DNA of 45,276 nucleotides from an uncultured Candidatus Woesearchaeota archaeon (GTDB lineage Archaea > Nanobdellota > Nanobdellia > Woesearchaeales > 21-14-0-10-32-9). The stretch lies in the NCBI GenBank assembly GCA_903891505.1, contig CAITEO010000002.1:1-45276 (forward strand), given 5' to 3'. The notes under the pieces were generated by a model. The model saw only the letters and a list, made by a program, of their open reading frames with translations, did no database searches and was not told where the DNA came from. The translations under genes and the position numbers were made by a program. This document shows positions 9,241-37,017 of this stretch, piece by piece. Within the stretch, counting starts at the first letter, position 1. Each line of letters begins with the position of its first letter.

Positions 9241-12114
9241 TCATATTTTCAATGCATACTTGAGTGTTCCTAGGGATTCGTCGCCGGTGAGAGAGGAGCA
9301 AATGTACATGTATTTCTGAGTTGGGATGCAAGCCTGCAGCGTATTATTTACTGCGTTCACCACAAGATTTCCTTTCACTGTGAACGTTTGTATTTTAGTC
9401 ATGTTTAATGTTATGAATGGCACAGATCCTAAAATATTTAATTGAGTGTCTATCACATCATCATTATCTACATCAGTTAATGTTTCGTTAGATATTTGCA
9501 CATTATTCAAAACTTTTGCTGATTTTATTGTACAGGTGCAGGCATCGCCAACACTCGCGCATTCTGTTAATGACTTTGCAAATCTAACCAATTCTTCATG
9601 GGCAATATCTGTTGGATTAGGTGAAATATCTTCGAAATTTTCGACAAATACTGCATTTGCCTCTTTGCTATAATTTACTTTTACAAGCACCTGATCATTT
9701 AGTTTTAGGAGTTGATTTGTCTTGTATAATTCGCTTTCTTCATTTTCATAATCTGTCCAAACTGACGCATTTGAGATTATTTTTATCACGAGTTCGCCAG
9801 TCGAATCTTTTATTTTTATTGTCGCGTTTGGATCTGCAAGAAGTTCGGCCAAAGTTATTTCTTTGTCATTAAATATTTGTGTTTGTACACCCTGAGTTTG
9901 CATCGCCTGATTCAAAGGTCCTTTTGCTCTCGTCTGTATATCTGTTATTTTTCCTAATAATAACCCTTTCTGGTCAGGCGCGAGCTTACTTGATATCTTT
10001 ACGTTATAATCAGAAATAGACATTATGTCGTCTTCTAATTCTTTGTCACATACACTAACTTTAAGTTCTGGGTCTTGCCCAGCAGATTGGATTTGGTTTG
10101 AGATGCAATTATCCTTCTCAGCACCTTGTTTTGTCGTGCACAAATTTATTGTTTGCTTAAAGAATTCTTTCGTGTTATCAAAAAGTTTTGTTACATTATA
10201 TATTCTTGTTTGAAATGAATATTTTGCCAAGTACGTTCCAGCTTCTGTCTCTACTGTATCTGATGTTCCTGAAAAGTCCTCGCTCGGCATCTGGAAATTT
10301 GAGTCTAGAACGCATACTTCTGCACGATCTTTTATTTGTGATTGAAATGCTTTTTCTTGAGTTTTTCCTGCGCCTCCATAAATATCTATGTGGTCACATG
10401 CAAGTGCTGAACCTGTGTCTTCGACAATATAGTATCCATTTTTACTATTTCCTTCTCCCCAATAAATGTATAATTTTGCGCCTCTTTTGAATCTTGAGTC
10501 ACATTTCGCCGCGACTGTTCTTCCAGGAATAGGATCTGTGCCCATAGCTGTTACTCCGTTTTTATGTCCTGAAATTGTTGGACTTTGAGTGGGACCAAGA
10601 GGACTTATAGTTTCTGCTTTGAATACTTGTCCATTCATTGATCCACTTCCTTGACATCTTACTGCAGGAAAGAATGAGTCTTGTTTTAGGCAGCATTGAT
10701 ATGATGTTCCACATGCACCACCTACAGACCAAATACCGAAGTCGTTGAAAAATGGAGTGTAATAAACTGTTGTTCTTATATTTTTGAAGCAGTTCTTCTC
10801 GTTTATATCAGCCGGTAGTCCTGCTGCTTTTGCGGTTATAATTTTTAGATCAGCGTTAGCTTCAGGATTTGTTGTCTTTGTGTCTACAATTACGTTTCCT
10901 GTTCCTGCATTGTTTCCATTTGTATTTCCATTCGCGTTCGTATTGCCCGTCCCGATGCTGCTTTGCATTTTGCTGAGTTTATCTTTCGCATCAGTTATTA
11001 TTTGGTTCTCGCTATTTTTTATATCTGAGGATGGATCTGTTCTGCTCGTATCTATTTCGCTATCTAAAAGAACTGTCTTCATTGAAAGATTTATTTCGTT
11101 CCTATTTGCTATTTCTGCAAGTAAATTCTTGAGCGCGGCAATTTGCTGTGGAAGATGTGCATGAGGTGCACTATTCAATAATGCCACAGATATCGCTGTT
11201 CTGTCTGCATCTTCATACATACAAGTCTTTGATGTGGATTTCAAGCAGTACGCGCTCTTCGTGTATCTTGATTCTGGGGTGAATAGAAATACTTTGCCGT
11301 TCTTGTCTATGATATAGTTGTAATTTCTCAGTCCTGTTTTTAATTCGTTGTATGTTTCTTCGATTGAACTCGTATCGGTATCATGAACTATTATTGTTGT
11401 AGGAACATCATTCTGTCTTCTTGCAAAAGATGCCAGTATAGAATATTTTCTTGCTACTTGATATCCGTCTTCATTTGTCACAACATCATCTATTGTTGTT
11501 CTTGCTGTTTTTGTTTTGTCAGCAACACTATAGTAAGACTCCACATATGCATAAACTGGTATGCCAAGATCCGTCAAAGATTGCACCCATATTTTCATGT
11601 TTCCATTTTCTTTCACAATAACTGTATCAAGTTCGTCAACATTTATCTTAAGAGGATCATATTTTAGAATTAGACTGTTCATATTTTTAATGAACTCTGA
11701 TTTGAACATCTGTTCATAATCTGGAAAACATTCATCAATGTTTTTCTGAGAATCTATTATAGGATATGTTAGTTTTCCGCAACCTGCATTCTGTATTTTT
11801 CCTTTGAACGTCTCCTCTGAATAACCTGATGCAGATATTGTTGAAGTTGCTGCTTCTTTGGCCGCAATATCTATTGATGCATCCATGTAAAAAAATACTC
11901 TTTCTGTCGCCTCGAATGTATTTATTATTTTTATAGGTGTTTCGCCCATATCTCCTACTTTAGAACTGAGATCGCTTACTCTAAATATGAGTATGGCTGC
12001 GAATATGAATCCTGCAAATAAAAATAATAACAGAGTAATATTTCCTTTCTTCCCGATTACTTTTGAACCAAACAATCTTTTTGTTTGTTCTTTTGTGTTT
12101 ATTCTTTTTTTCAT
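9241..12114 (-). CDS. pilin-like-anchored surface protein with amidase_2-like and 3D (MltA/RlpA-like) peptidoglycan-lytic domains
   Basis: N-terminus GKKGN-ITLLLFLFAGFIFAAILIF. Residues ~236-362 read TTIIVHDTDTSSIEETYNEL...NYNYIIDKNGKVFLFTPESRY...AISVALLN (amidase_2-like). Residues ~445-582 read GRTVAAKCDSRFKRGAKLYIYWGEGNSKNGYYIVEDTGSALACDHIDIYGG (three-Asp 3D domain). Confidence 0.8.
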   Translation of the reverse strand: MKKRINTKEQTKRLFGSKVIGKKGNITLLLFLFAGFIFAAILIFRVSDLSSKVGDMGETPIKIINTFEATERVFFYMDASIDIAAKEAATSTISASGYSEETFKGKIQNAGCGKLTYPIIDSQKNIDECFPDYEQMFKSEFIKNMNSLILKYDPLKINVDELDTVIVKENGNMKIWVQSLTDLGIPVYAYVESYYSVADKTKTARTTIDDVVTNEDGYQVARKYSILASFARRQNDVPTTIIVHDTDTSSIEETYNELKTGLRNYNYIIDKNGKVFLFTPESRYTKSAYCLKSTSKTCMYEDADRTAISVALLNSAPHAHLPQQIAALKNLLAEIANRNEINLSMKTVLLDSEIDTSRTDPSSDIKNSENQIITDAKDKLSKMQSSIGTGNTNANGNTNGNNAGTGNVIVDTKTTNPEANADLKIITAKAAGLPADINEKNCFKNIRTTVYYTPFFNDFGIWSVGGACGTSYQCCLKQDSFFPAVRCQGSGSMNGQVFKAETISPLGPTQSPTISGHKNGVTAMGTDPIPGRTVAAKCDSRFKRGAKLYIYWGEGNSKNGYYIVEDTGSALACDHIDIYGGAGKTQEKAFQSQIKDRAEVCVLDSNFQMPSEDFSGTSDTVETEAGTYLAKYSFQTRIYNVTKLFDNTKEFFKQTINLCTTKQGAEKDNCISNQIQSAGQDPELKVSVCDKELEDDIMSISDYNVKISSKLAPDQKGLLLGKITDIQTRAKGPLNQAMQTQGVQTQIFNDKEITLAELLADPNATIKIKDSTGELVIKIISNASVWTDYENEESELYKTNQLLKLNDQVLVKVNYSKEANAVFVENFEDISPNPTDIAHEELVRFAKSLTECASVGDACTCTIKSAKVLNNVQISNETLTDVDNDDVIDTQLNILGSVPFITLNMTKIQTFTVKGNLVVNAVNNTLQACIPTQKYMYICSSLTGDESLGTLKYALKI

Positions 12115-12256
12115 CGTTTGTTTTATCTCGCATTTTGTTATTTATTTTTTGTTTATCTTATCTTTTCTTATCATTTGTATGTTTTGTCTTAGCTTTTCGG
12201 CACCATTATTTTATTTTATATTCTCATTATTTTATTATCTGTTGCTCAATTCTCAT

Positions 12257-13429
12257 CTAATTAGGAAATGAACAAACTTTTATTCCTGCTGATCTTTTCT
12301 CCTCTGTTTTTCCCCATTGGAATGAACCATATTCAAAGTGCCAGGTTTCTTTTTTCCATCGTACAAATCCCGCATCGCACATAATGCTTTCTGCAAGAGC
12401 TAAATTTGTTCCGCCCGCACCATTTAGCTTTGTTCCATCTTTTGTGTATAATATAGCATCGACTGCAGTCCCATCTAAATGTCCTGATGGATTTGTGAGC
12501 TTGTCCGGATTTCTTGCGAAACGGCAATCGTTATTGCTGCAATCACATCCTTCTTTGCACGCTTTTTCATAAAGCGCCATTTGAATTTCTTTTGTTCTAT
12601 ATGCTTGAGTTATTACAAGTTTCATTTCTTTTGGTCGAAGTTCTGTTTCAGAGATATTTTTAAGTCTATCTACAAGCGCAGGCGTAGCATAACATATTTT
12701 TCCAACAGTCGTGTCTGTTTCATCACAAACAACGTTTGGGATATTTTCTATTTTTACAAGCTGCTCCCCGTTCGGAGAAATTGGCCCTGTTCCGCTAGAC
12801 TCGTAGCCCTTAAGCAGCCCTGCTTTGTATCCGAAAACTCTCGGTTGTCGTTTATCCATATCTGTTGCTAATTTAAAGACGACGAGTTTGTTTTTTCCAT
12901 CTGGATTCGGCACTGTTGTTTTTGGTAATTTGTCTATTGTTCCCGGGTCACAAGAATCTACGGAAACAGGAATTGAAATGAATGGCATAACACTCACCAC
13001 TACTCCTACTGTCGCTTTAGAATTTTGTGTGCCTGTTGAAGTGAGTAAATAGCACTTATCATCCACAATAACTAACCATGTGTCTGTCATTCTGCCATCA
13101 GGATAGAATTTTGAAAGTGCGACCACTAATTGCTCGTTGAATGACGCCATACCTGCGTCTGTAGTTATATCTGCATCCGCGACAAGATTGTATACTTTGT
13201 AACCTGCGCGTACATCTTGATCAAGCACCATTCTTGTCGAGAAGAATCCGCCGGCTACATTTATGTCGCTAGTGATTTTGTCTTGCTGATTCTTAAGACC
13301 TGTATAGAGAAAGACGAGCAAAACTCCGAAAATAATCAAGAACCCTATACCTACTAGGAACAAAGATGCGAAATCTTCAAATTGCCCTTTTTTATTCAAG
13401 ATTATTTTATTCAACTTGGTTTTGCTCAC
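12257..13429 (-). CDS. pilin-like-anchored M15 (VanY/LAS-type) peptidoglycan peptidase
   Basis: N-terminus NKKGQ-FEDFASLFLVGIGFLIIFGVLLVF. The C-terminal domain is LVITQAYRTKEIQMALYEK...NPSGHLDGTAVD (exact SxHxxGxAxD, nt 12458-12488)...ETWHFEY (nt 12329-12343). GTG start with a GGAGAT SD upstream. Confidence 0.8.
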   Translation of the reverse strand: MSKTKLNKIILNKKGQFEDFASLFLVGIGFLIIFGVLLVFLYTGLKNQQDKITSDINVAGGFFSTRMVLDQDVRAGYKVYNLVADADITTDAGMASFNEQLVVALSKFYPDGRMTDTWLVIVDDKCYLLTSTGTQNSKATVGVVVSVMPFISIPVSVDSCDPGTIDKLPKTTVPNPDGKNKLVVFKLATDMDKRQPRVFGYKAGLLKGYESSGTGPISPNGEQLVKIENIPNVVCDETDTTVGKICYATPALVDRLKNISETELRPKEMKLVITQAYRTKEIQMALYEKACKEGCDCSNNDCRFARNPDKLTNPSGHLDGTAVDAILYTKDGTKLNGAGGTNLALAESIMCDAGFVRWKKETWHFEYGSFQWGKTEEKRSAGIKVCSFPN

Positions 13430-13578
13430 TATTATTTTATCTCCTATGCTTATTTTTTTATTATTTTATGTCTTATTATTTTTTGGTTTGATGGTATTTT
13501 GTTTTATTTTATCTCTTTTTCTCTATTTTTTCTACTCTTTTTTTCTCAATTTAATATTTAGTTTAATTTTTAGTTTAA

Positions 13579-14073
13579 TTAATCGCTTCCTGCTTTATGA
13601 AAAAAAGTCAGTATAGCTGGTCTTTCTAACCCATGATCATATACATAAACGAAGTATTTTGTCATTGTAACTTTCTGCGCGTTTAATCCCCAATTTTGAG
13701 ATTCTATGAAATCTACATATTGCATATTGCTAGTGTTCATTCTTATTTCTGCAGCCATTGCATGTTTCGCCGTACCTACTAGCGGAACACATTCCCTAAG
13801 AACTTGCTCATTAAATCTTTCAATATCTATAACTCCTGTGTATACTCGTCCCGTGTCGTCTTTATACGCAAAACAATTAGGAGAATAAAGAACTCTTGCT
13901 TCGTAGACTGTTGGTTCTACATTATTATTGACAAATATTTGTCTGAGTGATGCTGTCCAAGCTACGGCTATAGCTACAATTAGACCTATAAAAATAAGCA
14001 TTATTATCCAGAATAAGCCCTTATCCGCCTCGCTTATTAATCCTTTTTTGTTGATTTTTATTGCTCGTCCCAT
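13579..14073 (-). CDS. class III signal (pilin-like) protein, unknown mature domain
   Basis: N-terminus NKKGL-ISEADKGLFWIIMLIFIGLIVAIAVA, with a GAGGA SD upstream. Confidence 0.6.
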   Translation of the reverse strand: MGRAIKINKKGLISEADKGLFWIIMLIFIGLIVAIAVAWTASLRQIFVNNNVEPTVYEARVLYSPNCFAYKDDTGRVYTGVIDIERFNEQVLRECVPLVGTAKHAMAAEIRMNTSNMQYVDFIESQNWGLNAQKVTMTKYFVYVYDHGLERPAILTFFHKAGSD

Positions 14074-14147
14074 TTGTCCTCATACAATATTATTATTCTA
14101 CTCGTCGTAAGATCTTTTTAGATCTTATCAAATATTCTTCAAATCTT

Positions 14148-15062
14148 TTAGTTAGTTAATCCTTGATTTATTGCGTCAAAGAGCTCCTTTGAAATCTGCG
14201 ATGTCAATCTTACTGAGTTATCTTTTGAAAGATTAATATACTTCTCAGCAGGCCCGAATACAACTTTTATTTCTTGTTTACTTGACGCAATCATTTGTAT
14301 TGATTTAAATTGATCTGCGTGATTTAATTGAATTGTTCTTTGCATATAACATGCAATTCTTTTGCTCCACGCGGTGTTAAGTGGATGCTGCGGATCTTCA
14401 TAATAATAAATGTTAATCCCCTCTGTTTGTGATGTTCCGAATGAAAATATGAACGCATCATTTGTTGTACTTGCATCATTTTGATCTAAGTAAGCAACTT
14501 TTGTATTTGGATCATATCTTGCTTTTGAATTAAGCGTAGTTGCAAGCAATTGAAGATATGTCTTTGCTTCTCCTGATTCGTCTGACTGTACGAAAAATCT
14601 GACTGCCATTTTTGAATTTGCATTGTTAAATGTTTGTGGAATGCTCACGCAATTATCTGTAAAGCTAACATCTTCATTCGTGAATTTTAATGTAGAATCT
14701 TTCAACGACATTGGTATTGACAGCGTGTTTTGTATTATTGCTGCAGTAATAGTTATTCCCCTCATAGAAAAGTAAGGATATCTTCCTGCTCCATCTTTTG
14801 AAATTATGATAACCTCATCTGGGGTTATCTGAACTTTGTATTGTTCAGTATTTTTTTCATAATTGTAGGCTATATCATATGGCGCAGCAGATATAGTCAT
14901 GATTGAAAGCGCGAAATCCTTGGACATTACTTGTTCAGTCGAACCAAACATGAGTTTGGGAACAGATATGATAAGAATAACCATTATTGAAACTCCGACA
15001 ACGAGCTCTGCTATAGTATAGAGCATACTTCTTGTCGCATCAACCCCTTTCTTATTCATCAT
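14148..15062 (-). CDS. class III signal (pilin-like) protein, unknown mature domain
   Basis: N-terminus MMNKKGV-DATRSMLYTIAELVVGVSIMVILIISV. The YTIAELVV stretch is reminiscent of the bacterial FTLIEL pilin helix. The ATG at 15062 is preferred over the track TTG at 15065. GGAAGGGG SD upstream. Confidence 0.65.
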   Translation of the reverse strand: MMNKKGVDATRSMLYTIAELVVGVSIMVILIISVPKLMFGSTEQVMSKDFALSIMTISAAPYDIAYNYEKNTEQYKVQITPDEVIIISKDGAGRYPYFSMRGITITAAIIQNTLSIPMSLKDSTLKFTNEDVSFTDNCVSIPQTFNNANSKMAVRFFVQSDESGEAKTYLQLLATTLNSKARYDPNTKVAYLDQNDASTTNDAFIFSFGTSQTEGINIYYYEDPQHPLNTAWSKRIACYMQRTIQLNHADQFKSIQMIASSKQEIKVVFGPAEKYINLSKDNSVRLTSQISKELFDAINQGLTN

Positions 15063-15148
15063 CAAAAACCCCTTCCATCTCGTCCAATATTAATATAATT
15101 TCTCTAACGTTTTTCTGAATTTGTTTCTCTAAATTTATTCCTTTAAAT

Positions 15149-15922
15149 TCAGTAATTCTTTAGGCACTCATCTGTAAAGCATAATTTTATTGTGTTATCA
15201 GGATTTTTAACAACGTAAACATCAGCATAGCTTGTCACAAACATATATTTATATCCTGTATAGCCAATTTCTTGAGCAGCTGTCGGATTTTTGTAGTATC
15301 TCCAAAAAGACATTCCTCCTTGCCATCTGTAAACGTAACTGTTGTCTCCAAGATGAAGCTCTGAATCTTTAGTCTCATCCACCCCTGCTCTTTTTTTGAG
15401 CGCTTCGTAATTTGTAGAATCCATTATTTTTTCAAGAAAAGTATTTTCCTGAAAATCCACATCACTAATATTTGTGCATTCTATTTTTTTCTCACAGTTC
15501 AATGTTGTAGCGAGGGTTCCTGTATTTTTATATGTCGTGTTTGAGAATCCTGGTGAATACTCTGTGCATAAACATATGCATGTATTTCCGACAGGAGGAC
15601 AATCTACGGGACGAGGCACGTATCTTTTGTATCCGCTGGGAAATATTTCTATTACTTCTTCTGCGTTTTTGTTGAAAACGTAAATCGCGGTTCCTTCGTC
15701 GAGAGTTACGCTAACCAGCTTCATCTTTATGTTGCCACTTTTGTTTGCAACTTCGTGCATTGCAGCAATAAGTGCGTTTGTACTCTCATCAGACGCTTTG
15801 TGCGATTTTAGTGCTTTTGATATTGCGCTAAACGTGATTAGAAAAAGAAAAATAAATACTACTAATCCAATGATGAATGTTAACATCACTCCTTCTGCTG
15901 CTTTTCTGTTCATCTTTCTCAT
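15149..15922 (-). CDS. class III signal (pilin-like) protein, Cys-containing mature domain
   Basis: N-terminus NRKAA-EGVMLTFIIGLVVFIFLFLITF. Its ATG overlaps the upstream stop (ATGA), indicating translational coupling. Confidence 0.6.
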   Translation of the reverse strand: MRKMNRKAAEGVMLTFIIGLVVFIFLFLITFSAISKALKSHKASDESTNALIAAMHEVANKSGNIKMKLVSVTLDEGTAIYVFNKNAEEVIEIFPSGYKRYVPRPVDCPPVGNTCICLCTEYSPGFSNTTYKNTGTLATTLNCEKKIECTNISDVDFQENTFLEKIMDSTNYEALKKRAGVDETKDSELHLGDNSYVYRWQGGMSFWRYYKNPTAAQEIGYTGYKYMFVTSYADVYVVKNPDNTIKLCFTDECLKNY

Positions 15923-16446
15923 GGTCCAGTAGTTTTAGTTTTATCTGCTGCTGCAGGAGGTATGTTTTGTACCAAATCACAAGGTGTTTGTCCTGGATGA
16001 GCATCTATTTCGCCGAAGAAATTCAAATCACTTTTCATAAGATACCTACAATCAGGACCTGTATAAAGACATCGTCCTGGTCCTACTGCGCTCTGGCTCC
16101 AGATAAACATCTCTTTTTTTATGTTGTCTTTCATTGCAATGTTTGCAGCGATATTCGCCTTATTATTTGCGCAACCACATGTTTTTTGGTCGAATGATGC
16201 TACGCAGTATTCGCCGCCACTTGCACCTATTATTTTATCGTTGTCATAACCACATTGACATGGATCTAACGGATTTGTTTTTCCATCTCCGTCAAAATCT
16301 CCGTTTTCCAAATACGCACCGAATGCATCTCCTCCAGAGATGTATTTTGGATAAATTACGAATATAAAAAACAAGAGAAGCATACCTAATATCACAATCG
16401 TCATTAAGATTTTTAGCCCCATAGATATTGATCCTTTTTTATTCAT
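15919..16446 (-). CDS. class III signal (pilin-like) protein with Ca-binding-like DxDxDG motif
   Basis: The start is reset to the ATG at 16446 (MNKKGS-ISMGLKILMTIVILGMLLLFFIF) because a perfect GGAGGT SD lies 6 nt upstream. The mature part contains DGDFDGDGKTNPLDPCQC. Confidence 0.65.
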   Translation of the reverse strand: MNKKGSISMGLKILMTIVILGMLLLFFIFVIYPKYISGGDAFGAYLENGDFDGDGKTNPLDPCQCGYDNDKIIGASGGEYCVASFDQKTCGCANNKANIAANIAMKDNIKKEMFIWSQSAVGPGRCLYTGPDCRYLMKSDLNFFGEIDAHPGQTPCDLVQNIPPAAADKTKTTGP

Positions 16447-16512
16447 TTTATTACCTCCAAATATGATTTTCACGATCCGTTGTTATCTTATTATTTACTA
16501 TTCTAAGTTTAA

Positions 16513-17757
16513 TCATGGACAATCTTTGAAATTCTTTGATAACTCTGCATAGTTTGTTGCTTTTGCTTTTTGATAATAATTGCAACTTTCTGTTGTGTAT
16601 GAACAATATGTCTTGCCGCCAGACGTAAATTTAGATACTGCCTGGTCAGATGTGAAATCTGTCTTCGATGTTTCCTTGTATTTTGCATTTGAAACTGATG
16701 CAAGGCATTCGCAGTTTGTTAATGCAGCTTCGAATGAACAACGACCCCCTCCTGTTGAAGTGCCTCCGCAAGGACATTGCTGCGCATTTGCTTGGGTCGT
16801 TTGTCCTCCTTTGCAGATGTATTTTTGATCTAGTAGTTTGTTGTCAAAGTTAGATTTTAGTGTTCTTGCGCCTCCTGCTCTGTTGAAGCAATCAACATCC
16901 ACGTATTGATTATTTTTCGGATCATCACCCGCGTATGTGTTAGCCTGCGAGTCTGGATTGTTACAAGTTATGCCTGTGAGTCCTGCATTATTAGCTGGGA
17001 AGAAGCACATGTATGCCTGTCCATTTGGCTCTGATATTTTCATCACATAGAGTATTGTTTTATCTCCATTTTTGAATGCAGTGTGCCAAAAATATTTATT
17101 TTCTAACATATATCCAATTTGTTTCTCATTACTATCTTTCTTCGAGGAAGAAAATAGTATTGATGGAACAGGTGTCGGGCTTATACTTTTGATATCTGGA
17201 TCGGGTAAAATTGAAGACCTATCATTGAATTGTTTGTAGAAAGAATTTACAACACTTGCACCCATTATAACACATGGTTGAGCATTAGTTATTGTAACCG
17301 CTGAAACAGGAGTATCTACTCCTTGCGTTTTCATATCCTGTGTATCCAAGCTTTTTGATTCTGTTAGTCTAATTAGCATATCAGATCCTGATTTGTCGAA
17401 ATAAAGATTGAAATTATAATCGTAAAATCCACTCTGATCCATTGCGGGCAATTCAACAAAACAGAAGTCTTGATCTTTTGATGCAGCAGCAGTCGATATT
17501 GCTTTGCTCACTCCGTCAAAGAATGACATTTGCGCATCCATATTCTTATGGAAGTCCATCTGATTTTGTGTAGCATCCACTTCAGGCACTCCTCTTATCG
17601 CAGTGCGTATCTTATCAAATGCTTTTGGAATTAAACCATTGCCATAAAATATGAACACCATTAAAATTAAAAATCCTACAAGTATTATTATTGTAATCAA
17701 TGTGCCAAGTCCGGCACTATCTTCTCCTTTCCTACCTATTTTTCTTAGTTTTTTCAT
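16513..17757 (-). CDS. class III signal (pilin-like) protein, large Cys-rich mature domain
   Basis: N-terminus GRKGE-DSAGLGTLITIIILVGFLILMVFIF, paralogous at the N-terminus to 17975-19375. Confidence 0.65.
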   Translation of the reverse strand: MKKLRKIGRKGEDSAGLGTLITIIILVGFLILMVFIFYGNGLIPKAFDKIRTAIRGVPEVDATQNQMDFHKNMDAQMSFFDGVSKAISTAAASKDQDFCFVELPAMDQSGFYDYNFNLYFDKSGSDMLIRLTESKSLDTQDMKTQGVDTPVSAVTITNAQPCVIMGASVVNSFYKQFNDRSSILPDPDIKSISPTPVPSILFSSSKKDSNEKQIGYMLENKYFWHTAFKNGDKTILYVMKISEPNGQAYMCFFPANNAGLTGITCNNPDSQANTYAGDDPKNNQYVDVDCFNRAGGARTLKSNFDNKLLDQKYICKGGQTTQANAQQCPCGGTSTGGGRCSFEAALTNCECLASVSNAKYKETSKTDFTSDQAVSKFTSGGKTYCSYTTESCNYYQKAKATNYAELSKNFKDCP

Positions 17758-17768
17758 GATGTTCTACT

Positions 17769-17972
17769 TCATTCATTTCCAAATATGCTGTTGACTAAAA
17801 AGTTGGAATCTGAGTTTAAAAGTATTATATATGTTGCGACGATCGCGAGCAATATGGCTATAAGTATTATTCTAATTAAAGTTGATTTTATGAGTCCTTT
17901 TCGTCCGAGGCCACGAGATCTATGAACGCTCGTCAAACAACGTACTATGCATATGATTCTGTTGAAATCCAT
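17769..17972 (-). CDS. mini pilin-like protein (67 aa)
   Basis: The ATG at 17972 lies 2 nt after the upstream stop. GRKGL-IKSTLIRIILIAILLAIVATYIILL is followed by only ~17 further residues. Confidence 0.4.
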   Translation of the reverse strand: MDFNRIICIVRCLTSVHRSRGLGRKGLIKSTLIRIILIAILLAIVATYIILLNSDSNFLVNSIFGNE

Positions 17973-17974
17973 AA

Positions 17975-19375
17975 TTAAACCACCTGCGTGCACTCATTGC
18001 CTACTGAGTTAACATCTGTTATTAAAACCATTTGAGGACGATCGACAGTAAGCTTTTGTTTAAACCAATTCAAGAAACTTAAAGGATCGTCGTCAGGAGT
18101 ATCATATATAAAATTTAACGCCTTATATATTGGTCTCCAAGTGGCACTAAATCTCTCATCAGACACTCCAACGTATGCAATTACGTATGTGTGTTCTGTT
18201 CTGATGTTGTCAACAACAGGCCACGTTTGACCTTCGTTTGAAAGATAGTAATAATATGACTTCGGACTAACTCCGGGAATCGCATTCGCGCCTCCAAGCA
18301 TTTTTCTAGATATATCCCTGATTGATAATCTTGTGGCTTCGCCAATCGCTTTTTTTACGCATGCAGAATCGGAACAATCTGCTGCAGTTTTTTCTGCAAC
18401 TTGGAATCTACTCTCCAAAATCTGGTTGATGTCATAGTCTTTTATGAACACAGAAAGATCTGATCCGACATGAACTCGTATTTTATGATTTTTTAAATCT
18501 ACCATCACGAGAAGTGCATCATATGTTGATTCGTTCGTGTTGATGTGTGCATCTTCTATTATTCCTCTTGCATCGCTTGGATCCATCGCGCTGAATTCAT
18601 CCGCAGTTATTAAAAGAAGATTTGCTACATGCCCCTTTTGAAGATTTATTCCTGCCTGCTCTATTTCATCCTTTTGATCTTGTGTTAGAGTAAATCCATA
18701 ATCCATTATATAACCTGATGCAAGTTTCGCATCTATTTTTGATGGCTTTATTACTCGGTCATTATCTCCTATGCCTGCATCTGCTTTGAAGTCATAAATC
18801 GCGCCATAATAGTTCTTTGTTCCGCCACCATATATTATGGCTGGATTATACGCTTTGGACGCCAGATAGTTTATCATCTCCGGCGCAGAAATGTTGTTGC
18901 TCTCTCTTTTTATGGGCTCGTTTAGAAATTTAATCGGAGTTGCTGTTCCATCATCAAGTTTTCCTGATACGGTGAATGTGTAGCAGACAAAACATGCCTT
19001 TTCTTCTCTTTCTACTTTGAATATATCCTGCACAGACCCCTCAGCGAACTGCCACCAACACCGTGCTGCGCGATCTGCTATTTGTTTTTTTATTCCTTCT
19101 CTATCTCCTTTCAAAGTTCCTAATTTCTTTGTCTTGCAAACAATAGGAGTTAGTTTCTCCATGTCTGCAACTCCTGTCATTAAAGTTATTGTCGCCTTTC
19201 CTCTTAGAATAACACTCGCTCGACAAAGAGTGTTTTGAGTAGCCTCATCTGATCTTGATGCGATGAGAACAATCGTTCCTATGATTGCTATTAACACAAG
19301 TATCGCTATGATCATAGTTGCAAGAGTACCTATGGTCGCATCCTCTCCTTTCCTCGAGCCTATAAATCTCTTCAT
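17975..19375 (-). CDS. class III signal (pilin-like) protein with TPM-like domain
   Basis: N-terminus SRKGE-DATIGTLATMIIAILVLIAIIGTIVLI. The internal segment YIMDYGFTLTQDQKDEIEQAG...NLLLITADEF...YDALLVMVDLKNHKIRVHVGSDLSVFIKDYDINQIL resembles the TPM (TLP18.3/Psb32/MOLO-1) fold pattern; this is inference. Confidence 0.65.
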   Translation of the reverse strand: MKRFIGSRKGEDATIGTLATMIIAILVLIAIIGTIVLIASRSDEATQNTLCRASVILRGKATITLMTGVADMEKLTPIVCKTKKLGTLKGDREGIKKQIADRAARCWWQFAEGSVQDIFKVEREEKACFVCYTFTVSGKLDDGTATPIKFLNEPIKRESNNISAPEMINYLASKAYNPAIIYGGGTKNYYGAIYDFKADAGIGDNDRVIKPSKIDAKLASGYIMDYGFTLTQDQKDEIEQAGINLQKGHVANLLLITADEFSAMDPSDARGIIEDAHINTNESTYDALLVMVDLKNHKIRVHVGSDLSVFIKDYDINQILESRFQVAEKTAADCSDSACVKKAIGEATRLSIRDISRKMLGGANAIPGVSPKSYYYYLSNEGQTWPVVDNIRTEHTYVIAYVGVSDERFSATWRPIYKALNFIYDTPDDDPLSFLNWFKQKLTVDRPQMVLITDVNSVGNECTQVV

Positions 19376-19449
19376 GTGTTCCTCTAAATACTCTCTAAAT
19401 ATACACTATGATTCCTGAATTGAATGTTAAATGACCTTTTTTGATATTG

Positions 19450-19572
19450 TTAAACAATTTTGTATATTAAATAAACGCCATACATAAGCAACAAAAATAG
19501 CACAACAAATAAGATGGAAATAATCAACGTTTTTGTCATTGATTTTTCCTCTCCTTTTCTAGATAGCGCCAT
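19450..19572 (-). CDS. 40-aa mini pilin-like peptide (not in the ORF track)
   Basis: Translation MALSRKGEEKSMTKTLIISILFVVLFLLLMYGVYLIYKIV*. It has the same SRKGE motif as the next gene. A consensus TATA box has its centre 26.5 nt upstream of its ATG, and an oligo-T terminator of the preceding unit lies upstream. Confidence 0.45.
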   Translation of the reverse strand: MALSRKGEEKSMTKTLIISILFVVLFLLLMYGVYLIYKIV

Positions 19573-19594
19573 AGCTAATCATCCTCTATTTTAC

Positions 19595-19602
19595 TATATA
19601 AA
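19595..19602 (-). promoter_or_regulatory. TATA box (TTTATATA on minus strand) for the leaderless mini-pilin ORF
   Basis: The plus strand reads tatataaa. The box centre is 26.5 nt upstream of the ATG at 19572. Confidence 0.5.
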
Positions 19603-19681
19603 TGTTTGTATGGATTGCTCTTGAAAAATAGAATAAATACTACCCTTACGAAAACTAAGAAGAAAATTTACTTGAACCGTT

Positions 19682-19697
19682 AAAAAAAACCAAAAAA
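19682..19697 (-). terminator. oligo-T terminator (T6 GG T8 on minus strand) after the 402-aa pilin-like gene
   Basis: The plus strand has A8 (19682-19689) and A6 (19692-19697), 63-78 nt downstream of the stop at 19760. This marks an internal transcription-unit boundary in the cluster. Confidence 0.5.
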
Positions 19698-19759
19698 CAA
19701 ATCCAGAAAATGCAAACCGCGTATTATCAAAATGAACATTATATTATGACTTGCTTACG

Positions 19760-20968
19760 TTAGCCAGTTCTATTTACTTCAAAATTTTCTGTGAACGACC
19801 CTGTCTTTGTATCTCCAGTATATGTTTCCATTACAAACGTCATTCTGACCAACCCATTTACAGGTACTTTGCTCGCGCATCCTGAATAATCTATTAGTAA
19901 TTGTGCTTCATTTCCGACACCGCAAGAACTAGGTGATGCATATTTTGTATCTAAAAGTCTCATGCACGGACCTACTAACACTTGACATTTTGGATCGACA
20001 GAATCTAAATCGTTCCACATTTTGAATTTTTCATACATTCCGGAATCTGCGCGAACGAATTGTTTGGATACATTCGATTCGTCTTCATACCATTGAAGCG
20101 GTCCTTTAGGCAACGCTACCGGATGAGCATAATCCACATTTGATTCTGTAATATACACACTAGGCGTTCCAGTTTTATGAACATTCGCTGTCTGTGTTGC
20201 TTGATTTGTAGTTGGTGTTCCAACTACATTCACATACACTGTTGCCGAGGCTAGTATGTTAACTTTGCTCGTATCTGTATTGTTGAATACCATTATGTCA
20301 AGTTTGTATCTTTTTCCTGCAGCACCCGCTAGAGGAGTTATGATTATTGCTTTCTTGTTTGTCTGATCGCATGTTCCTCTTATTGTTCTTCCTTCGAACC
20401 AAGCATCTGTGATTGAAATTGGATTTCCTTCATTTGTTATATCTCGCAAGGTTATAGAGCATATTTTGTCCTTTCCTTCAAGCCATGTAACAAGTTTTAT
20501 TTTGTCTCCAATTGCAGGAGTGTATGTTTTTCCTGATTGTACTTGCGAAGTGAGATCTGGATCGGTTATATCTCCTGCATATAGCAGCACTGTATCGCTT
20601 CCTGTGGTTGCGCCTGAGTTGCCTGCACCTCCAGTTTTTGTTGCATCGTTGCCTTTGGCGTTAGTACTTCCCCCAACAATATGTGAAGCATTGTTGCAAT
20701 CAGCCATTCTTTGTCCTATGTCAAGAGGTCCTTCGCAACAAGTATATTCTTTTCCTTGTTTGTTTTTGCAAGAACCGACACCTGAATCCATTTTTCCAGT
20801 TGGACAAGCGCTTCCTTTTTCCACAAATACTCCTGTACACTGTGTTACTGAATTTGTTGCTGGAAAAATTTTATCTTTAAGAAGATATATTCCAAATCCT
20901 AAGAGAATTAACACTAACACTACAGTCATTAATATTTTTATAACTGAGGAATCGCCTTTCTTGTTCAT
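19760..20968 (-). CDS. class III signal (pilin-like) protein with Cys headpiece
   Basis: N-terminus MNKKGD-SSVIKILMTVVLVLILLGFGIYLL, then QCTGVFVEKGSACPTGKMDSGVGSCKNKQGKEYTCC. Confidence 0.65.
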   Translation of the reverse strand: MNKKGDSSVIKILMTVVLVLILLGFGIYLLKDKIFPATNSVTQCTGVFVEKGSACPTGKMDSGVGSCKNKQGKEYTCCEGPLDIGQRMADCNNASHIVGGSTNAKGNDATKTGGAGNSGATTGSDTVLLYAGDITDPDLTSQVQSGKTYTPAIGDKIKLVTWLEGKDKICSITLRDITNEGNPISITDAWFEGRTIRGTCDQTNKKAIIITPLAGAAGKRYKLDIMVFNNTDTSKVNILASATVYVNVVGTPTTNQATQTANVHKTGTPSVYITESNVDYAHPVALPKGPLQWYEDESNVSKQFVRADSGMYEKFKMWNDLDSVDPKCQVLVGPCMRLLDTKYASPSSCGVGNEAQLLIDYSGCASKVPVNGLVRMTFVMETYTGDTKTGSFTENFEVNRTG

Positions 20969-20985
20969 AATTCAGCCCCTAAAAC

Positions 20986-21231
20986 TCAGCCCATCGGATT
21001 ACAACAAGTTTCTGCCGCATTTGAGCAAGTTACTGTCGAGCCGTCTGAAGGAATTATTTGGTTTCCGCTGGAACATACTTTGCATATTCCTCCTTTGAGC
21101 CCACAGGATGTTCCCTGATTGGCACCGTTGCTGCTCTTTGTAATCAAGAATACAAGTATAACGAGTATTATTATTGCTATGACTACCATTATTATCATGT
21201 TTATGCTCATTTCTCCTTTCTTTGGATTCAT
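20986..21231 (-). CDS. small Cys-rich pilin-like protein (candidate major subunit), paralog A
   Basis: MNPKKGE-MSINMIIMVVIAIIILVILVFLI, then a 6-Cys headpiece C-x6-C-x2-C-x15-C-x6-CC. A GAGGT SD lies 8 nt upstream. Confidence 0.7.
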   Translation of the reverse strand: MNPKKGEMSINMIIMVVIAIIILVILVFLITKSSNGANQGTSCGLKGGICKVCSSGNQIIPSDGSTVTCSNAAETCCNPMG

Positions 21232-21272
21232 CGTTCATACCTCGAATACATTTATTCTATTCAAGTAAGCAT

Positions 21273-21521
21273 TTATGGTTTTATGCAGCATTTCTGGCCG
21301 CTTGAACATGATGCTGTTGGATGTAGAATATATCCTTCTCCTGCATCATCATTGCAGTTTCCTGAGGACTCTATGCACTGACCGCCAATCCCCGAGCAGG
21401 TTGTTCCGTTTGTTAATGGTCCTCCTACCCTGGTGAATAGAAGCACTGCTAGTATCACGAGGATTATCAGAGCTATTGCTGCTACAATTATTAGGTTTAT
21501 GCTCATATCTCCCTTTTTCAT
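21273..21521 (-). CDS. small Cys-rich pilin-like protein (candidate major subunit), paralog B
   Basis: MKKGD-MSINLIIVAAIALIILVILAVLLF, then C-x6-C-x6-C-x15-C-x5-CC. The ATG at 21521 is preferred over 21548 because an AGAGGTG SD lies 7 nt upstream of 21521. Confidence 0.7.
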   Translation of the reverse strand: MKKGDMSINLIIVAAIALIILVILAVLLFTRVGGPLTNGTTCSGIGGQCIESSGNCNDDAGEGYILHPTASCSSGQKCCIKP

Positions 21522-21665
21522 TTGAACACCTCTCAAGCGTTGTTGCATTTGTTTATTGACACATGTTGAGCGAGCTAAACAAATACTGATAGTGGATAAT
21601 GGACGCTCGGGTATTTAAAGTTTTCTAAGACTACGAGTATTGTGAAGTGTGGTGAGAATTTTTGT

Positions 21666-22229
21666 TCATCCGCAGACGATTATGCGCAGCTGCATTGATT
21701 GAAATGTTGTAGTTACAAAAGGAGTTATATCTGTTTTTGTTCCAGCGTAGCTTTTGTTGCAGCCGGTTGAGAGACTAATATATTCTCTTCCCTGAGAATC
21801 CCTGACTGTGACATTATATTCATAATTCCCCCATAAATCTAGTGTTTGATTCAAAATGTACTTTATTGTGTTGTTTGCATAAACACAGGAATCTACTCCG
21901 TCGCACATAATTTCCTTGTTGAAACTGCAGTCCTCAAGTAAGTCTCTTATTTTGTATTTGCATGGACTCGTTGATTCAATAATAGTCGTGCCGATATTGC
22001 TTATGGTTAGTGTTGTTCCGACTTCTTTTTTTTGTGAAGACACTGTTTTTGAATTGTTTATTGCGAATGAAAACCCGAAGAACATCACTAAACTAATAAG
22101 TATTACTATGACAAGCAAGCCCATGGTTTCTATCTGGCCTCTTTTCACCAAATAATTATGCTCAGTTCGAGAACAAATATTTTTCCTATTATGTTTAATA
22201 ATTTTGTTCGGTTTAATATTTCGTTTCAT
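21666..22229 (-). CDS. class III signal (pilin-like) protein, Gln+1 type
   Basis: VKRGQ-IETMGLLVIVILISLVMFFGF. ATGA overlap with the upstream gene. Confidence 0.6.
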   Translation of the reverse strand: MKRNIKPNKIIKHNRKNICSRTEHNYLVKRGQIETMGLLVIVILISLVMFFGFSFAINNSKTVSSQKKEVGTTLTISNIGTTIIESTSPCKYKIRDLLEDCSFNKEIMCDGVDSCVYANNTIKYILNQTLDLWGNYEYNVTVRDSQGREYISLSTGCNKSYAGTKTDITPFVTTTFQSMQLRIIVCG

Positions 22230-22750
22230 GAGTAGGTTTTCACCTCTAGAATTGAAAAGTAATTCTCATTTGATATCGGGTTATTGATTAATATTGGTAT
22301 AAATGTTGGGGTGCTAGATTTATTTGCTGAGTTGTTGTAATCATATAATGTTACATTCTCTACAGTAGAATTAAACATCATTATTCTTACAGTTATTTTT
22401 GAATTTTTGAAGACAAAATAATAATATTGCTTAGCTTCCTGTTTATCTGCATCAATTGTGCTCTTGAATGCTTTCAATCTGTAATAATCGAAGCAAGTTT
22501 TTACCATAACGTTGCTATCTGAGCATTTTAGTTCGTTTAGACTAGAGGCTATAACTGCAATCTTCATGGCGTTTATATCGTTCATGTTTTGTTTTTCAGT
22601 TTGAATGCTGCCATTTTTGCTGTTTACAAAGAAAACTAATCCTACTATTATCATTATTATAACTATTATTATTACCACTACTGTTTCGCCGCTTTGTAAC
22701 TGACCTTTCTTGCAGTTATTATTGCATTTATTGTTTTTTATATTTACCAC
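22226..22750 (-). CDS. class III signal (pilin-like) protein, Gln+1 type
   Basis: CKKGQ-LQSGETVVVIIIVIIMIIVGLVFF. GTG start. Confidence 0.55.
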   Translation of the reverse strand: MVNIKNNKCNNNCKKGQLQSGETVVVIIIVIIMIIVGLVFFVNSKNGSIQTEKQNMNDINAMKIAVIASSLNELKCSDSNVMVKTCFDYYRLKAFKSTIDADKQEAKQYYYFVFKNSKITVRIMMFNSTVENVTLYDYNNSANKSSTPTFIPILINNPISNENYFSILEVKTYS

Positions 22751-22821
22751 GTCGTGTTTTTTTGTTCATTGTGCATATTTTTATATTTTCTTTGCATCAT
22801 ATTATGCTTGTGACATCTCAT

Positions 22822-23949
22822 TTAGTATATTGTTGGGCAATTAGGCTTAGCCATATCTTTGTTCATTGTATTTATAGCCTCTATGTATGAATTCAAATTG
22901 TTGTAGTTATTCGTTGGATATGTTGAGTTTGTTATTGTTATATTTATGTAGTCTTGCAGCACTCCTGTTCCGAAGAAATAATTGCACTCAGGAATTGTTT
23001 TTTCTATGTTTGCAATTTGATTTGTTCTGTTGAGGTTTATTTCTCCGACGATTCTTGCTGTGTGCATAAGTTTCTCCATTGTGCAGCCGTAGAGTTTCTC
23101 GTCGCCCGATATTATTGCGCCAAGCAGAACCTCGTCGTTAACATATGGTTTCCAGGCGGATGAGTTTTGGTATTTATTTATTTCATCAGAATTAGGATCA
23201 TAAAATAGTACTTTTTTTTCTGTATTTGTCTTGCTTAGATCTACTATCTTGCTTTTTCTTAGGACTGCATTTTGAAGACTATTAAGCCCTATTTTATAGC
23301 TAGGCGCTACTATTATGTACTGCCTAAATCCCTGGTCGGTAATATTTTTAATGTTATCTTTAACTACTAACATTCTCTCGAAATTCACAGGCAACATATC
23401 ATAGTATGGTTTTGTGAGCGGGTCATCAATAAAAATATACTGTGTTTTCTCATCGCTAAGATAAAGTATTTGCGTTACAGGATAGGGCGCAGCATATAGT
23501 TTAGTCCAAACTATTGGCTTTGATCCCCCGACAATTTGAGGTGTGAAAATAATTTCTGTCTCCAACTGAATTCTGGATTTGCCATCCTTAAGAGAATATG
23601 TGTGTCCATCTTGTTCACATCTAAAAACCATCTCTGCATTGAGCATTTCAAGCGTCTGAAATGAATCTGGATTTTGCTGTATTGTAGCAAGCAGCGCCGC
23701 CATTCTTCCGCCGATAATAGTTGATAATTCTTGTACGCTGTCTTTTTTTTGGTTGTTTGTAAGCACTATAAAGAATATTAGTATGGCTGCGCCAGCTATA
23801 AGCACAAATATCCAATGAAATGTTATTTCTATTTGCGCTTTTTTTTGTGCAGGAATATATATTTTATTCTTTGATTTATTCTGCAACTTATTCTGTACTT
23901 TTTCTTCATGTACTTTTTTAGAAACAGCCGACTTGAGTTCTTGTTTCAT
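22822..23949 (-). CDS. class III signal (pilin-like) protein, Ala-Gln type
   Basis: QKKAQ-IEITFHWIFVLIAGAAILIFFIVL after a ~35-aa basic N-region. Confidence 0.55.
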   Translation of the reverse strand: MKQELKSAVSKKVHEEKVQNKLQNKSKNKIYIPAQKKAQIEITFHWIFVLIAGAAILIFFIVLTNNQKKDSVQELSTIIGGRMAALLATIQQNPDSFQTLEMLNAEMVFRCEQDGHTYSLKDGKSRIQLETEIIFTPQIVGGSKPIVWTKLYAAPYPVTQILYLSDEKTQYIFIDDPLTKPYYDMLPVNFERMLVVKDNIKNITDQGFRQYIIVAPSYKIGLNSLQNAVLRKSKIVDLSKTNTEKKVLFYDPNSDEINKYQNSSAWKPYVNDEVLLGAIISGDEKLYGCTMEKLMHTARIVGEINLNRTNQIANIEKTIPECNYFFGTGVLQDYINITITNSTYPTNNYNNLNSYIEAINTMNKDMAKPNCPTIY

Positions 23950-23950
23950 T

Positions 23951-24502
23951 TTAACCGTTATCAGCAGATATGCTAACCTTTCCTTTTCCTATTCCTTCTA
24001 GCTTAATATAGAAAAGATTGCCTGTTGAATTGAGGCAAAGAACTCCTGAATTCGCAGGAGTTCCTGATACTTGTATTATATCAAGTCCATACAAAGTCAT
24101 TGTTTTGGATGATGATACAAGGAACACATTATTTCCTGTTCCAACAGTGTATTCTGTATTTATAGACGGATACTTTTCCTTGAGCAAAGTTAAACCAGCA
24201 GAATTTATTGTTGTATTTATGAAGCATAATTGATTGTACTCACATGGTGCTTTGATTGTTTTCCTGGCTAAGTCTCCGTAATTGTTGCTCTGCTCTATCA
24301 TTAGTTTTAGCTGTGTTTTGAATGTTGCCTGATCGACACTACATCCTTGATTCATTATCTTATTTATTGATTTGTATCCAAAGAGAAGCACAGCACCGAC
24401 TATTAATATTGCCATTAAGTATATGAACACTTGCTGTGTTTGAGCGCGTCTGTTAGACTTTCTATAAGCTACTTTTCTGTTTTTAAATTTATTATTGTTC
24501 AA
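23951..24502 (-). CDS. class III signal (pilin-like) protein, Ala-Gln type
   Basis: NRRAQ-TQQVFIYLMAILIVGAVLLF. TTG start with a GAGGAT SD 7 nt upstream. Confidence 0.55.
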   Translation of the reverse strand: MNNNKFKNRKVAYRKSNRRAQTQQVFIYLMAILIVGAVLLFGYKSINKIMNQGCSVDQATFKTQLKLMIEQSNNYGDLARKTIKAPCEYNQLCFINTTINSAGLTLLKEKYPSINTEYTVGTGNNVFLVSSSKTMTLYGLDIIQVSGTPANSGVLCLNSTGNLFYIKLEGIGKGKVSISADNG

Positions 24503-24537
24503 ATTTTATCCTCGATATAATTAGATTATTTTTTCTT

Positions 24538-27843: not shown

Positions 27844-27870
27844 TCAATCCCTCATTTAATCCTCTTTTTT

Positions 27871-31662: not shown

Positions 31663-31730
31663 CCCTCTCCTCTCGAATAAATCTGATATGCTAGTTTATA
31701 AATGTTTCTTTGAAAAAGATTGAAATTAAC

Positions 31731-34892: not shown

Positions 34893-34931
34893 TCCTAACC
34901 CTTCCCTCTTTTGATTCTCCCGTTTAACAGG

Positions 34932-34955
34932 AACTGCGCGTTGCAGTTATATAAA
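34932..34955 (-). promoter_or_regulatory. cluster promoter: TATA box (TTTATATA, 34948-34955) abutting a 6-5-6 palindrome AACTGC-N5-GCAGTT (34932-34948)
   Basis: The TATA lies about 59 nt upstream of the ATG at 34892, and the leader contains AGAGGGAAGGG. The palindrome occupies the TATA-to-TSS interval, a classic archaeal repressor position. The region is divergent from the CYTH gene promoter. Confidence 0.45.
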
Positions 34956-35001
34956 TTTTGCGAAGAAAACGAGGAGGGTTCTGCAGTAATATGCAAAAAT
35001 A

Positions 35002-35009
35002 TTTATTAA
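35002..35009 (+). promoter_or_regulatory. TATA box (TTTATTAA) for the leaderless CYTH gene
   Basis: The box centre is 26.5 nt upstream of the ATG at 35032. Confidence 0.5.
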
Positions 35010-35031
35010 AACACTTAATTCTTCTAATAAC

Positions 35032-35577: not shown

Positions 35578-35578
35578 A

Positions 35579-35618
35579 ACAAACTAGAATTTACAAATAC
35601 AAACTAGAATTTACAAAT
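35579..35618. repeat. perfect 20-nt tandem direct repeat x2 (ACAAACTAGAATTTACAAAT)
   Basis: The copies at 35579-35598 and 35599-35618 are identical. They lie in the convergent intergenic region between the CYTH gene and the small Cys-rich gene. Confidence 0.95.
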
Positions 35619-35651
35619 TTCTTATAGAGCAAACTTTAACATTGTCTTTGC

Positions 35652-35861: not shown

Positions 35862-35882
35862 AATCTACTCCCTATGATTTGT

Positions 35883-35890
35883 ACTATAAA
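35883..35890 (-). promoter_or_regulatory. TATA-like box (TTTATAGT on minus strand) for the small Cys-rich gene
   Basis: The box centre is 25.5 nt upstream of the ATG at 35861. Two copies of TACTTTTTCTAA(G/C)AAC (35891-35907, 35928-35944) lie just upstream of it. Confidence 0.4.
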
Positions 35891-36995: not shown

Positions 36996-37017
36996 GCAAC
37001 TAGAATGTACCTTGAGG

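Follow-up and report, generated by a model that had tools for sequence, protein, structure and literature searches.

A gene on the minus strand of a 45,276-nucleotide stretch of DNA from an uncultured Candidatus Woesearchaeota archaeon (GenBank assembly GCA_903891505.1, contig CAITEO010000002.1, positions 1 to 45,276; hereafter “the window”) encodes a 390 amino acid (aa) protein in which a predicted zinc peptidase of the M15/LAS family follows an N-terminal module (N-module) with a class III-like, i.e., prepilin-type, leader. We consider it somewhat probable that this protein is exported, bimodular and tethered to the cell surface, that it hydrolyzes the stem peptides of murein in bacterial walls, and that its leader would undergo prepilin-type processing in this Woesearchaeota-type DPANN archaeon.

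The gene and its homologues

The open reading frame (ORF) at 12,257–13,429 (minus strand) is a real gene. It begins with a GTG start codon preceded by a Shine-Dalgarno-like element (Table 1), its stop codon occupies positions 12,257–12,259 (minus strand), its translation contains NKKGQFEDFASLFLVGIGF, LVITQAYRTKEIQMALYEK, SGHLDGTAVD and ETWHFEY, and its N-terminus reads MSKTKLNKIILNKKG-QFEDF-ASLFLVGIGFLIIFGVLLVFLYTGL. An earlier note made from the letters of this DNA had proposed a pilin-anchored M15 wall enzyme, and all the strings it quoted are present in the 390-aa translation. WHFEY lies where that note placed it (12,329–12,343), and SGHLDGTAVD was correctly read but given an end one base too far (12,488, for a true span of 12,458–12,487). 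The underlying pattern S.H..G.A.D is found a single time when the window is translated in all six frames, whereas 200 residue shuffles predict 0.0 occurrences.

A word-indexed homologue search across 5.8 billion proteins found one relative only, P0002, which is 52% identical and which NCBI names “D-alanyl-D-alanine carboxypeptidase family protein” (Candidatus Nanoarchaeia archaeon). An exhaustive profile search across 1.84 billion cluster representatives yielded 192 relatives (E ≤ 1e-3). Named relatives derive from Nanoarchaeia and Woesearchaeota metagenome-assembled genomes (MAGs). The long GTG start is backed by these comparisons, since homologues retain the KKG and hydrophobic N-terminus, the orthologues of the 390-aa protein included. 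P0002 itself (348 aa; locus L001, 9887–11047) is annotated from an internal Met; its frame stays open further upstream, to 386 aa with MLHKLNKKGMADKFF and a hydrophobic helix, so that the leader is missing from the public annotation.

An M15/LAS zinc peptidase domain

To place the C-terminal domain, we relied on a family profile built from an alignment (A3) of 42 C-terminal domains from relatives, which is also the source of the conservation counts given here. Against the PDB, this profile matched solved M15 structures with E-values from 5.7e-13 to 8.9e-7 and with the catalytic motifs in register, namely LdcB/YodJ (4ox3, E 5.7e-13, 52 bits), VanXYc (4mur, E 1.6e-12, 50.6 bits), VanX (1r44, E 7.4e-12, 48.4 bits), Ply500 (2vo9, E 1.9e-11, 47 bits) and VanY (5hnm, E 6.9e-7). 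Taken individually, 36 of the 42 family members match PF02557 (E ≤ 1e-3) and 30 match PF01427. Seven residues are invariant across the alignment (R278, Q283, P308, H317, D324, W363 and H364) and two more nearly so (E361, E366), while the cysteines C235, C246, C351 and C386 are kept in 27–34 of the members. R278, E361 and H364 correspond to R71, E181 and H184 in VanX numbering.

The predicted structure points the same way. An AlphaFold2 model of the domain made with the family alignment reached a mean predicted local distance difference test score (pLDDT) of 95.5 and a predicted template modeling score (pTM) of 0.89. In a Foldseek search of the PDB, every match at E ≤ 1e-3 was an M15 enzyme, and Hedgehog N-domains, which form the second branch of LAS, came next. 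The probability was 1.00 to VanX, Ply500, VanXYc, LdcB, VanY and ChiX, and template modeling (TM) scores were 0.46–0.58, Hedgehog-N included. Because family profile, conservation and fold model agree, the assignment of a predicted M15/LAS metallopeptidase with the H-D-H, Glu and Arg catalytic set is well supported, and the same family and zinc ligands proposed in the earlier note are thereby upheld.

Several results weigh against this assignment or against a finer one. The single 390-aa sequence stays below the curated Pfam cut-offs (PF01427, 20.9 bits vs. 27; PF02557, 17.6 bits vs. 25) and below that of the NCBIfam DdpX model (NF007557, 26.7 bits), with PHROG endolysin families at ~20 bits; phmmer with the single protein against the PDB gave only chance matches to UDP-galactose 4-epimerase (E ~0.1), and a two-sequence profile was too weak as well (Ply500 at E 0.25). 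Since the single sequence lies below every curated cut-off, the M15 assignment required the family profile and the structure model, and the hmmscan comparison suggested in the earlier note failed for the protein by itself but was significant for most members of its 42-member family. Moreover, LdcB, VanXY, VanX and Ply500 score alike against this profile, so that no single subfamily (M15 B, C or D) stands out as best. The distance between the two metal-binding His is 47 residues in the window protein, 34–56 in most family members and 73–78 in VanX-like ones. This short spacing argues against a closed VanX-type dipeptidase pocket, and the absence of the long VanX-type insert weighs against M15D while leaving B and C undistinguished. 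Candidate bonds are D-Ala-D-Ala, L-Lys/meso-diaminopimelate-D-Ala and L-Ala-D-Glu, among which the sequence does not choose.

A pilin-like N-terminal module

The first ~200 residues form a unit of their own. Residues 11–126 of the query profile also match stand-alone proteins of 164–194 aa (P0027, P0030, P0036, P0039 and others) that have a KK[GA] leader and a hydrophobic stretch, together with Y-T-T-R...PGYKVY and IPNPxG blocks and an invariant Trp. Because the N-module thus occurs as separate proteins of ~175 aa, the 390-aa protein is, judging from these relatives, a fusion of an independent N-module and a peptidase. AlphaFold2 modeled residues 1–224 (pLDDT 80, pTM 0.72) as one helix (residues 13–69), then a head of five or six strands, then a disordered linker, and in this model helix and beta head trace a pilin-like (type IV) outline.

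The leader adds to this resemblance. A basic-basic-small leader followed by a hydrophobic motif was found in 67 of 151 relatives (29 KKG, 10 KKA and 9 KRG), in which the commonest residue at position +1 is Gln, and six genes of the surrounding cluster read [KR][GA]Q[FILVT]. EppA substrates of M. maripaludis are processed at KGQV, KGQL, KGQI and RAQI sites, and the bindosome subunits of Sulfolobus indicate that non-pilin proteins can take a prepilin-type route (PMC4371748); an Epd-type type IV filament (TFF) system 1 was also placed in DPANN archaea by a 2026 preprint. The leader of the window protein thus fits a class III (EppA-type KGQx) signal, at the motif level only.

The main competing view of this N-terminus is that of a plain signal-anchor, i.e., an uncleaved type II anchor with a positive-inside KK before the transmembrane helix, neither processed as a prepilin nor part of a filament. 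A number of observations fit such an anchor and count against a pilin. No Pfam family matches the N-module of the window protein even at E ≤ 10, a Foldseek search with its model brought up only PCNA/sliding-clamp noise (best E 0.17, TM ~0.12), Pilin_N is matched weakly by just 2 of 25 N-module relatives (best E 0.0014), and pilin Pfam models scanned at E ≤ 10 found no match in 15 cluster N-termini. A polar QFEDF spacer lies between the putative cleavage site after Gly15 and the hydrophobic run, and neither a prepilin peptidase, nor a PilB/FlaI ATPase, nor a PilC/FlaJ platform was recognized in the 45-kb window or in the 21-kb L001. On the other side, Gly or Ala nearly always follows the two basic residues in the motif-bearing relatives, with Gln as the preferred next residue, the six cluster genes resemble EppA substrates, and the N-module, conserved as a unit and equipped with a folded head, is more elaborate than a plain anchor would have to be. 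We therefore regard the signal-anchor as unlikely, if well worth keeping in mind, and of the two we consider a class III-like, pilin-like module likelier. Of the “pilin-anchored” label in the earlier note, the KKG-Q and hydrophobic leader, its recurrence in ~15 cluster genes and its EppA-like character stand, whereas pilin families, a pilin fold match and pilus machinery within the 45 kb do not back it.

Gene neighborhood and fusion proteins

The nearest neighbors link the peptidase to murein degradation. Downstream lies a 957-aa protein with Amidase_2 and 3D domains (Table 1), and the order small pilin-like gene, M15 gene, Amidase_2 gene is conserved in four Woesearchaeota-type genomes, i.e., the window, L001 (GCA_053576915.1), L002 and L006 (a 620-kb Woesearchaeota contig). 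A large Amidase_2 neighbor is thus also present in the three other loci, with the 3D domain detected only in the window and L006 neighbors. An RPA gene is found near this trio, with other genes intervening in L001, L002 and L006, and synteny with RPA, ABC transporter, NUDIX and HD genes is conserved across the four genomes. The window itself is archaeal in content, with an RPA-type OB-fold protein with DUF2240, TrmB/TFIIE-like regulators and HVO-type domains. For the 164-aa gene directly upstream, an hhalign comparison with the N-module (alignments A6 vs. A9) gave a probability of 66% and an E-value of 5.5e-5 over ~80 N-terminal columns, and BLASTP between the N-module and this protein was not significant (E 0.38), hence a possible distant paralogue.

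Elsewhere among the DPANN archaea, domains of the same M15 clade terminate proteins of 1200–1800 aa with the same leader type, in which they follow NlpC/P60 and SLT (P0016), NlpC/P60 (P0019, P0021, P0022 and P0025) or a GDSL esterase domain (P0015). The N-terminal 180 residues of the 957-aa amidase protein are homologous to two of these giants (P0019, E 2e-8; P0016, E 6e-6), which provides a Rosetta-stone link between the M15 and amidase genes and makes a stronger case for an M15 role in murein degradation than the domain name by itself. DPANN giants that share these N-terminal ~180 aa are likewise carried by loci L004, L005 and L007. The earlier note had suggested that the two adjacent genes together attack glycan, amide and stem-peptide bonds of murein; such a multi-bond degradation is reasonable, the Amidase_2 and 3D domains being confirmed and the fusions reinforcing it, but the glycan cleavage ascribed to 3D derives from the domain name.

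Could the M15 and amidase pair instead be the endolysin cassette of an integrated virus? The fold does resemble phage M15 endolysins, and a Bro-N protein (PF02498, E 1.8e-11), whose family is frequent in viruses and mobile elements, is encoded just past the surface-protein cluster (43,075–43,920, minus strand). Viral structures, however, match the M15 model no better than cellular ones, the genes sit in chromosomal synteny with RPA and ABC transporter genes in four genomes, their N-terminal anchors and sizes of 390–957 aa are unlike endolysins, and a murein endolysin would be useless to the virus of a murein-less archaeon. A viral lysis module is thus highly improbable, and we rejected a phage origin based on the structural matches, the chromosomal context and the N-terminal membrane module.

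Table 1. Features of the 390-aa gene, its product and its surroundings (positions in the window).
Feature	Positions	Strand	Basis
Complete gene, 390-aa bimodular protein (N-module, linker and M15 domain)	12257..13429	-	ORF list; 52%-identical orthologue P0002 in syntenic locus
GGAG, Shine-Dalgarno-like element 11 nt 5' of GTG (putative function)	13441..13444	-	Read from sequence
Basic leader M1-G15 ending K13-K14-G15; putative class III (prepilin-type) site G15-Q16	13385..13429	-	[KR][KR][GA] shared; resembles EppA KGQ[VLI] sites (PMC4371748)
Hydrophobic stretch A21-L45, predicted membrane-embedded part of long N-terminal helix	13295..13369	-	Kyte-Doolittle mean 3.08 over 17 aa; AlphaFold2
N-module, ~residues 1-200: leader, 57-residue helix, small alpha/beta head with YTTR...PGYKVY...W...IPNPxG	12830..13429	-	Homology to stand-alone proteins; AlphaFold2
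Low-confidence linker between modules, ~residues 201-224	12758..12829	-	pLDDT 49-58
M15/LAS zinc peptidase domain, residues 225-390 (166 aa)	12260..12757	-	Family profile vs. PDB, PF02557 matches, AlphaFold2, Foldseek
R278, aligned with VanX Arg71 (transition-state stabilization)	12596..12598	-	Invariant 42/42; aligns to YR of VanX, LdcB, VanXY
S315-G-H317-L-D-G-T-A-V-D324 (SxHxxGxAxD); H317 and D324 predicted Zn ligands	12458..12487	-	H and D 42/42; aligned to 4ox3, 4mur, 1r44 motifs
E361-T-W-H364 (ExxH); predicted catalytic Glu and third Zn ligand	12338..12349	-	E 41/42, H 42/42; aligned to EPWH/EWWH of LdcB, VanXY, VanX
Upstream 164-aa gene, NKKG and hydrophobic N-terminus; possible distant N-module paralogue	13579..14073	-	hhalign; position kept in L001, L002, L006
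Downstream 957-aa gene, GKKG and hydrophobic N-terminus, Amidase_2 and 3D; candidate functional partner	9241..12114	-	Pfam Amidase_2 1.4e-9, 3D 1.9e-5
Cluster of ~15 genes starting with [KR][KR][GA] and a hydrophobic helix, including 1053- and 1889-aa proteins	9241..42836	-	N-termini compared

Beyond these immediate neighbors, several other genes of the surface-protein cluster have recognizable features (all coordinates on the minus strand of the window). Two proteins lying within it (1101 and 1263 aa) have Sec-like N-termini instead of the basic-basic-small start, the first of them (24,538–27,843) with a TSP3_bac match at E 8e-10. A 184-aa protein (15,919–16,473) contains DGDGKTNPLD, a weak match to thrombospondin type 3/dockerin-like calcium-binding motifs, and a 466-aa protein (17,975–19,375) has an SRKG and hydrophobic leader ahead of a TPM domain (PF04536, E 1e-6) and keeps its position in the related locus (L001, 4184–5662). 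A pilin-like protein of 305 aa (14,148–15,065) matches PG_binding_5 weakly (PF21398, E 0.013, below the cut-off), and may be a wall-binding partner. Finally, L002, L005, L008 and L077 belong to third-party annotation MAGs titled “uncultured Methanosarcinales archaeon” and yet display a DPANN-type locus, syntenic in the case of L002, so that these labels look unreliable.

Relatives outside the DPANN archaea

Relatives, those beyond the DPANN archaea included, were sorted by a genome scan with an eight-sequence alignment as query (a scan for related loci with a two-sequence alignment had found nothing) and by a rough neighbor-joining tree. Three groups emerged, i.e., cytosolic VanX-like proteins of Brevibacillus, Desulfovibrio and others (24–31% identity), proteins with Sec signals, including members of the Candidate Phyla Radiation (CPR, or Patescibacteria), and a large group with class III-like leaders.

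The first group bears on a nutritional role, in which a VanX/VanY-like dipeptidase or carboxypeptidase would harvest D-Ala or process muropeptides already released. Such scavenging or trimming would agree with these proteins being among the nearest non-DPANN relatives, as well as with the best single-sequence matches being to D-Ala-D-Ala dipeptidase models (PF01427 and NF007557). In the DPANN clade, however, the two metal motifs are not separated by the long insertion, and the window protein appears extracytoplasmic and belongs to a family whose members are joined, by fusion or by gene linkage, to wall hydrolases of the endo-acting kind (NlpC/P60, SLT and Amidase_2), which makes scavenging improbable.

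CPR bacteria also encode fusions of a T4SS_pilin domain (type IV secretion system pilin; PF18895, VirB2-like) with a VanY-type M15 domain, in L027 (7539–8411; Saccharibacteria MAG CAZZNB010000004), P0028, P0044 and P0048. Their VanY-type domain is a relative of the DPANN clade, shares its WHFEYGT tail and follows an N-module that is likewise filament-subunit-like. An architecture of filament-subunit module plus M15 is therefore present in both ultrasmall radiations. The two differ in that the CPR proteins are bacterial, with a VirB2-like N-module and a Sec signal, whereas the window protein has a class III-like leader. These CPR fusions go unmentioned in one published paper on the T4SS of Patescibacteria.

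Proposed mechanism

Our preferred reading, that of a surface-tethered hydrolase of bacterial murein, can be broken down into four steps. First, Sec would insert the basic leader ending in KKG, and a prepilin-type (EppA/PibD-like) peptidase would probably cut before Gln16, leaving the 57-residue helix embedded in the membrane or as part of an assembly resembling a type IV filament, as the motif suggests. Second, the head of the N-module and the flexible linker would position the C-terminal domain outside the cell. Third, by homology and in the model, H317, D324 and H364 are predicted to bind zinc, with E361 as general base and R278 stabilizing the transition state; an extracytoplasmic, disulfide-stabilized domain fits here, since C235, C246, C351 and C386 are conserved. 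Fourth, the gene context suggests that the substrate would be the stem peptide of murein in the wall of a bacterium, be it host, prey or competitor, and that the enzyme may act jointly with the adjacent Amidase_2 and 3D protein.

DPANN archaea are not known to make murein. As this archaeon is not expected to make its own, the target would be a bacterial wall, which also bears on a self-directed or non-murein role. There, the enzyme would remodel the archaeon's own envelope (e.g., for filament assembly) or cut a non-murein peptide, in keeping with its place within a surface-protein cluster and with the dedicated wall hydrolases that bacterial secretion and pilus systems often have, such as VirB1 (PMC12102498). 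However, the associated catalytic domains (Amidase_2, 3D, NlpC/P60, SLT and M15) are all murein-specific by family, and we give such a role little credence.

It is also tempting to speculate one step further, although we hold this to be a doubtful extension, that the cluster between 9 and 43 kb builds a type IV filament-like “lytic pilus” whose minor subunits carry wall-cutting enzymes, with which Woesearchaeales episymbionts would bore through bacterial murein. Its cargo would include the M15 peptidase and the Amidase_2 and 3D protein here, and NlpC/P60, SLT or GDSL giants elsewhere, and the CPR fusions would then represent a parallel, either independent or acquired through domain exchange.

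Comparison with known systems

Known M15/LAS enzymes (clan MD; LdcB/YodJ, VanY, VanXY, VanX, and the phage L-Ala-D-Glu peptidases Ply500 and LysB4) share the fold and the catalytic set (R, SxHxxGxAxD and ExxH) with the window domain, and all of them have murein stem peptides or D-Ala-D-Ala as substrates. Identity to them is only 14–25%, and the clade of the window protein, unlike known M15, has an IPNVxCDE...GKIC N-terminal extension, conserved cysteines and a WHFEYGT..W....C tail. It is also presented differently, on an archaeal, putatively pilin-like module, as opposed to the Sec signal, lipobox or wall-binding domain of known M15 enzymes.

Modular pilins are established in bacteria, as exemplified by PilB and PilC of S. 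sanguinis (Raynaud et al., 2021, PMC8179133). These have IPR012902-type leaders with Glu5 and mostly binding modules, and for PilB the pilin module was solved and incorporation into filaments shown; the window protein, in contrast, is archaeal, carries an enzyme module, and is pilin-like based on motif and model. The Sulfolobus bindosome offers an archaeal precedent, with large non-pilin proteins displayed through prepilin-type signals and pilus assembly machinery. Its subunits are solute-binding, PibD-processed and accompanied by a dedicated bas operon, whereas the window protein would carry a hydrolase as cargo and has no assembly genes nearby.

Among archaea, extracellular enzymes that degrade murein, with bacteria as their presumed targets, have been reported from Woesearchaeota and Pacearchaeota (PMC12352652, PMC8204110, PMC9723730). 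A survey of modular archaeal peptidoglycan hydrolases lists Woesearchaeales proteins with LysM, Peptidase_M15 and Sec signals (PMC12352652), and giant SLT proteins of DPANN archaea have been described (PMC8204110, PMC9723730). These catalogues were either restricted to proteins with both a wall-binding domain and a Sec signal or centered on giant SLT proteins, which sets them apart from the combination of N-module and M15 seen here.

Significance

What is new here is hence a matter of architecture. The M15 family is ordinary and already annotated, as the NCBI name of the orthologue as a D-Ala-D-Ala carboxypeptidase family protein illustrates, and DPANN peptidoglycan hydrolases, M15 types included, are already catalogued in Woesearchaeales. 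In contrast, the pairing of the N-module with M15, the operon shared with Amidase_2 and the series of fusions appear undescribed in the papers on DPANN hydrolases cited above. The protein is thus an architectural variant on known themes, namely DPANN peptidoglycan hydrolases and modular pilins.

If its N-terminus were a mere membrane anchor, this would be one more DPANN peptidoglycan hydrolase, a theme already published. If it is pilin-like, the idea of the “modular pilin” would extend to archaea and to enzymatic cargo, with a possible parallel in the CPR T4SS_pilin-VanY fusions. The genes described here also provide concrete, expressible proteins for experiments on how an ultrasmall archaeon gets through the wall of a bacterium. 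A conserved murein-hydrolase operon on pilin-like N-modules would argue for bacterial, not archaeal, partners of Woesearchaeota and Pacearchaeota.

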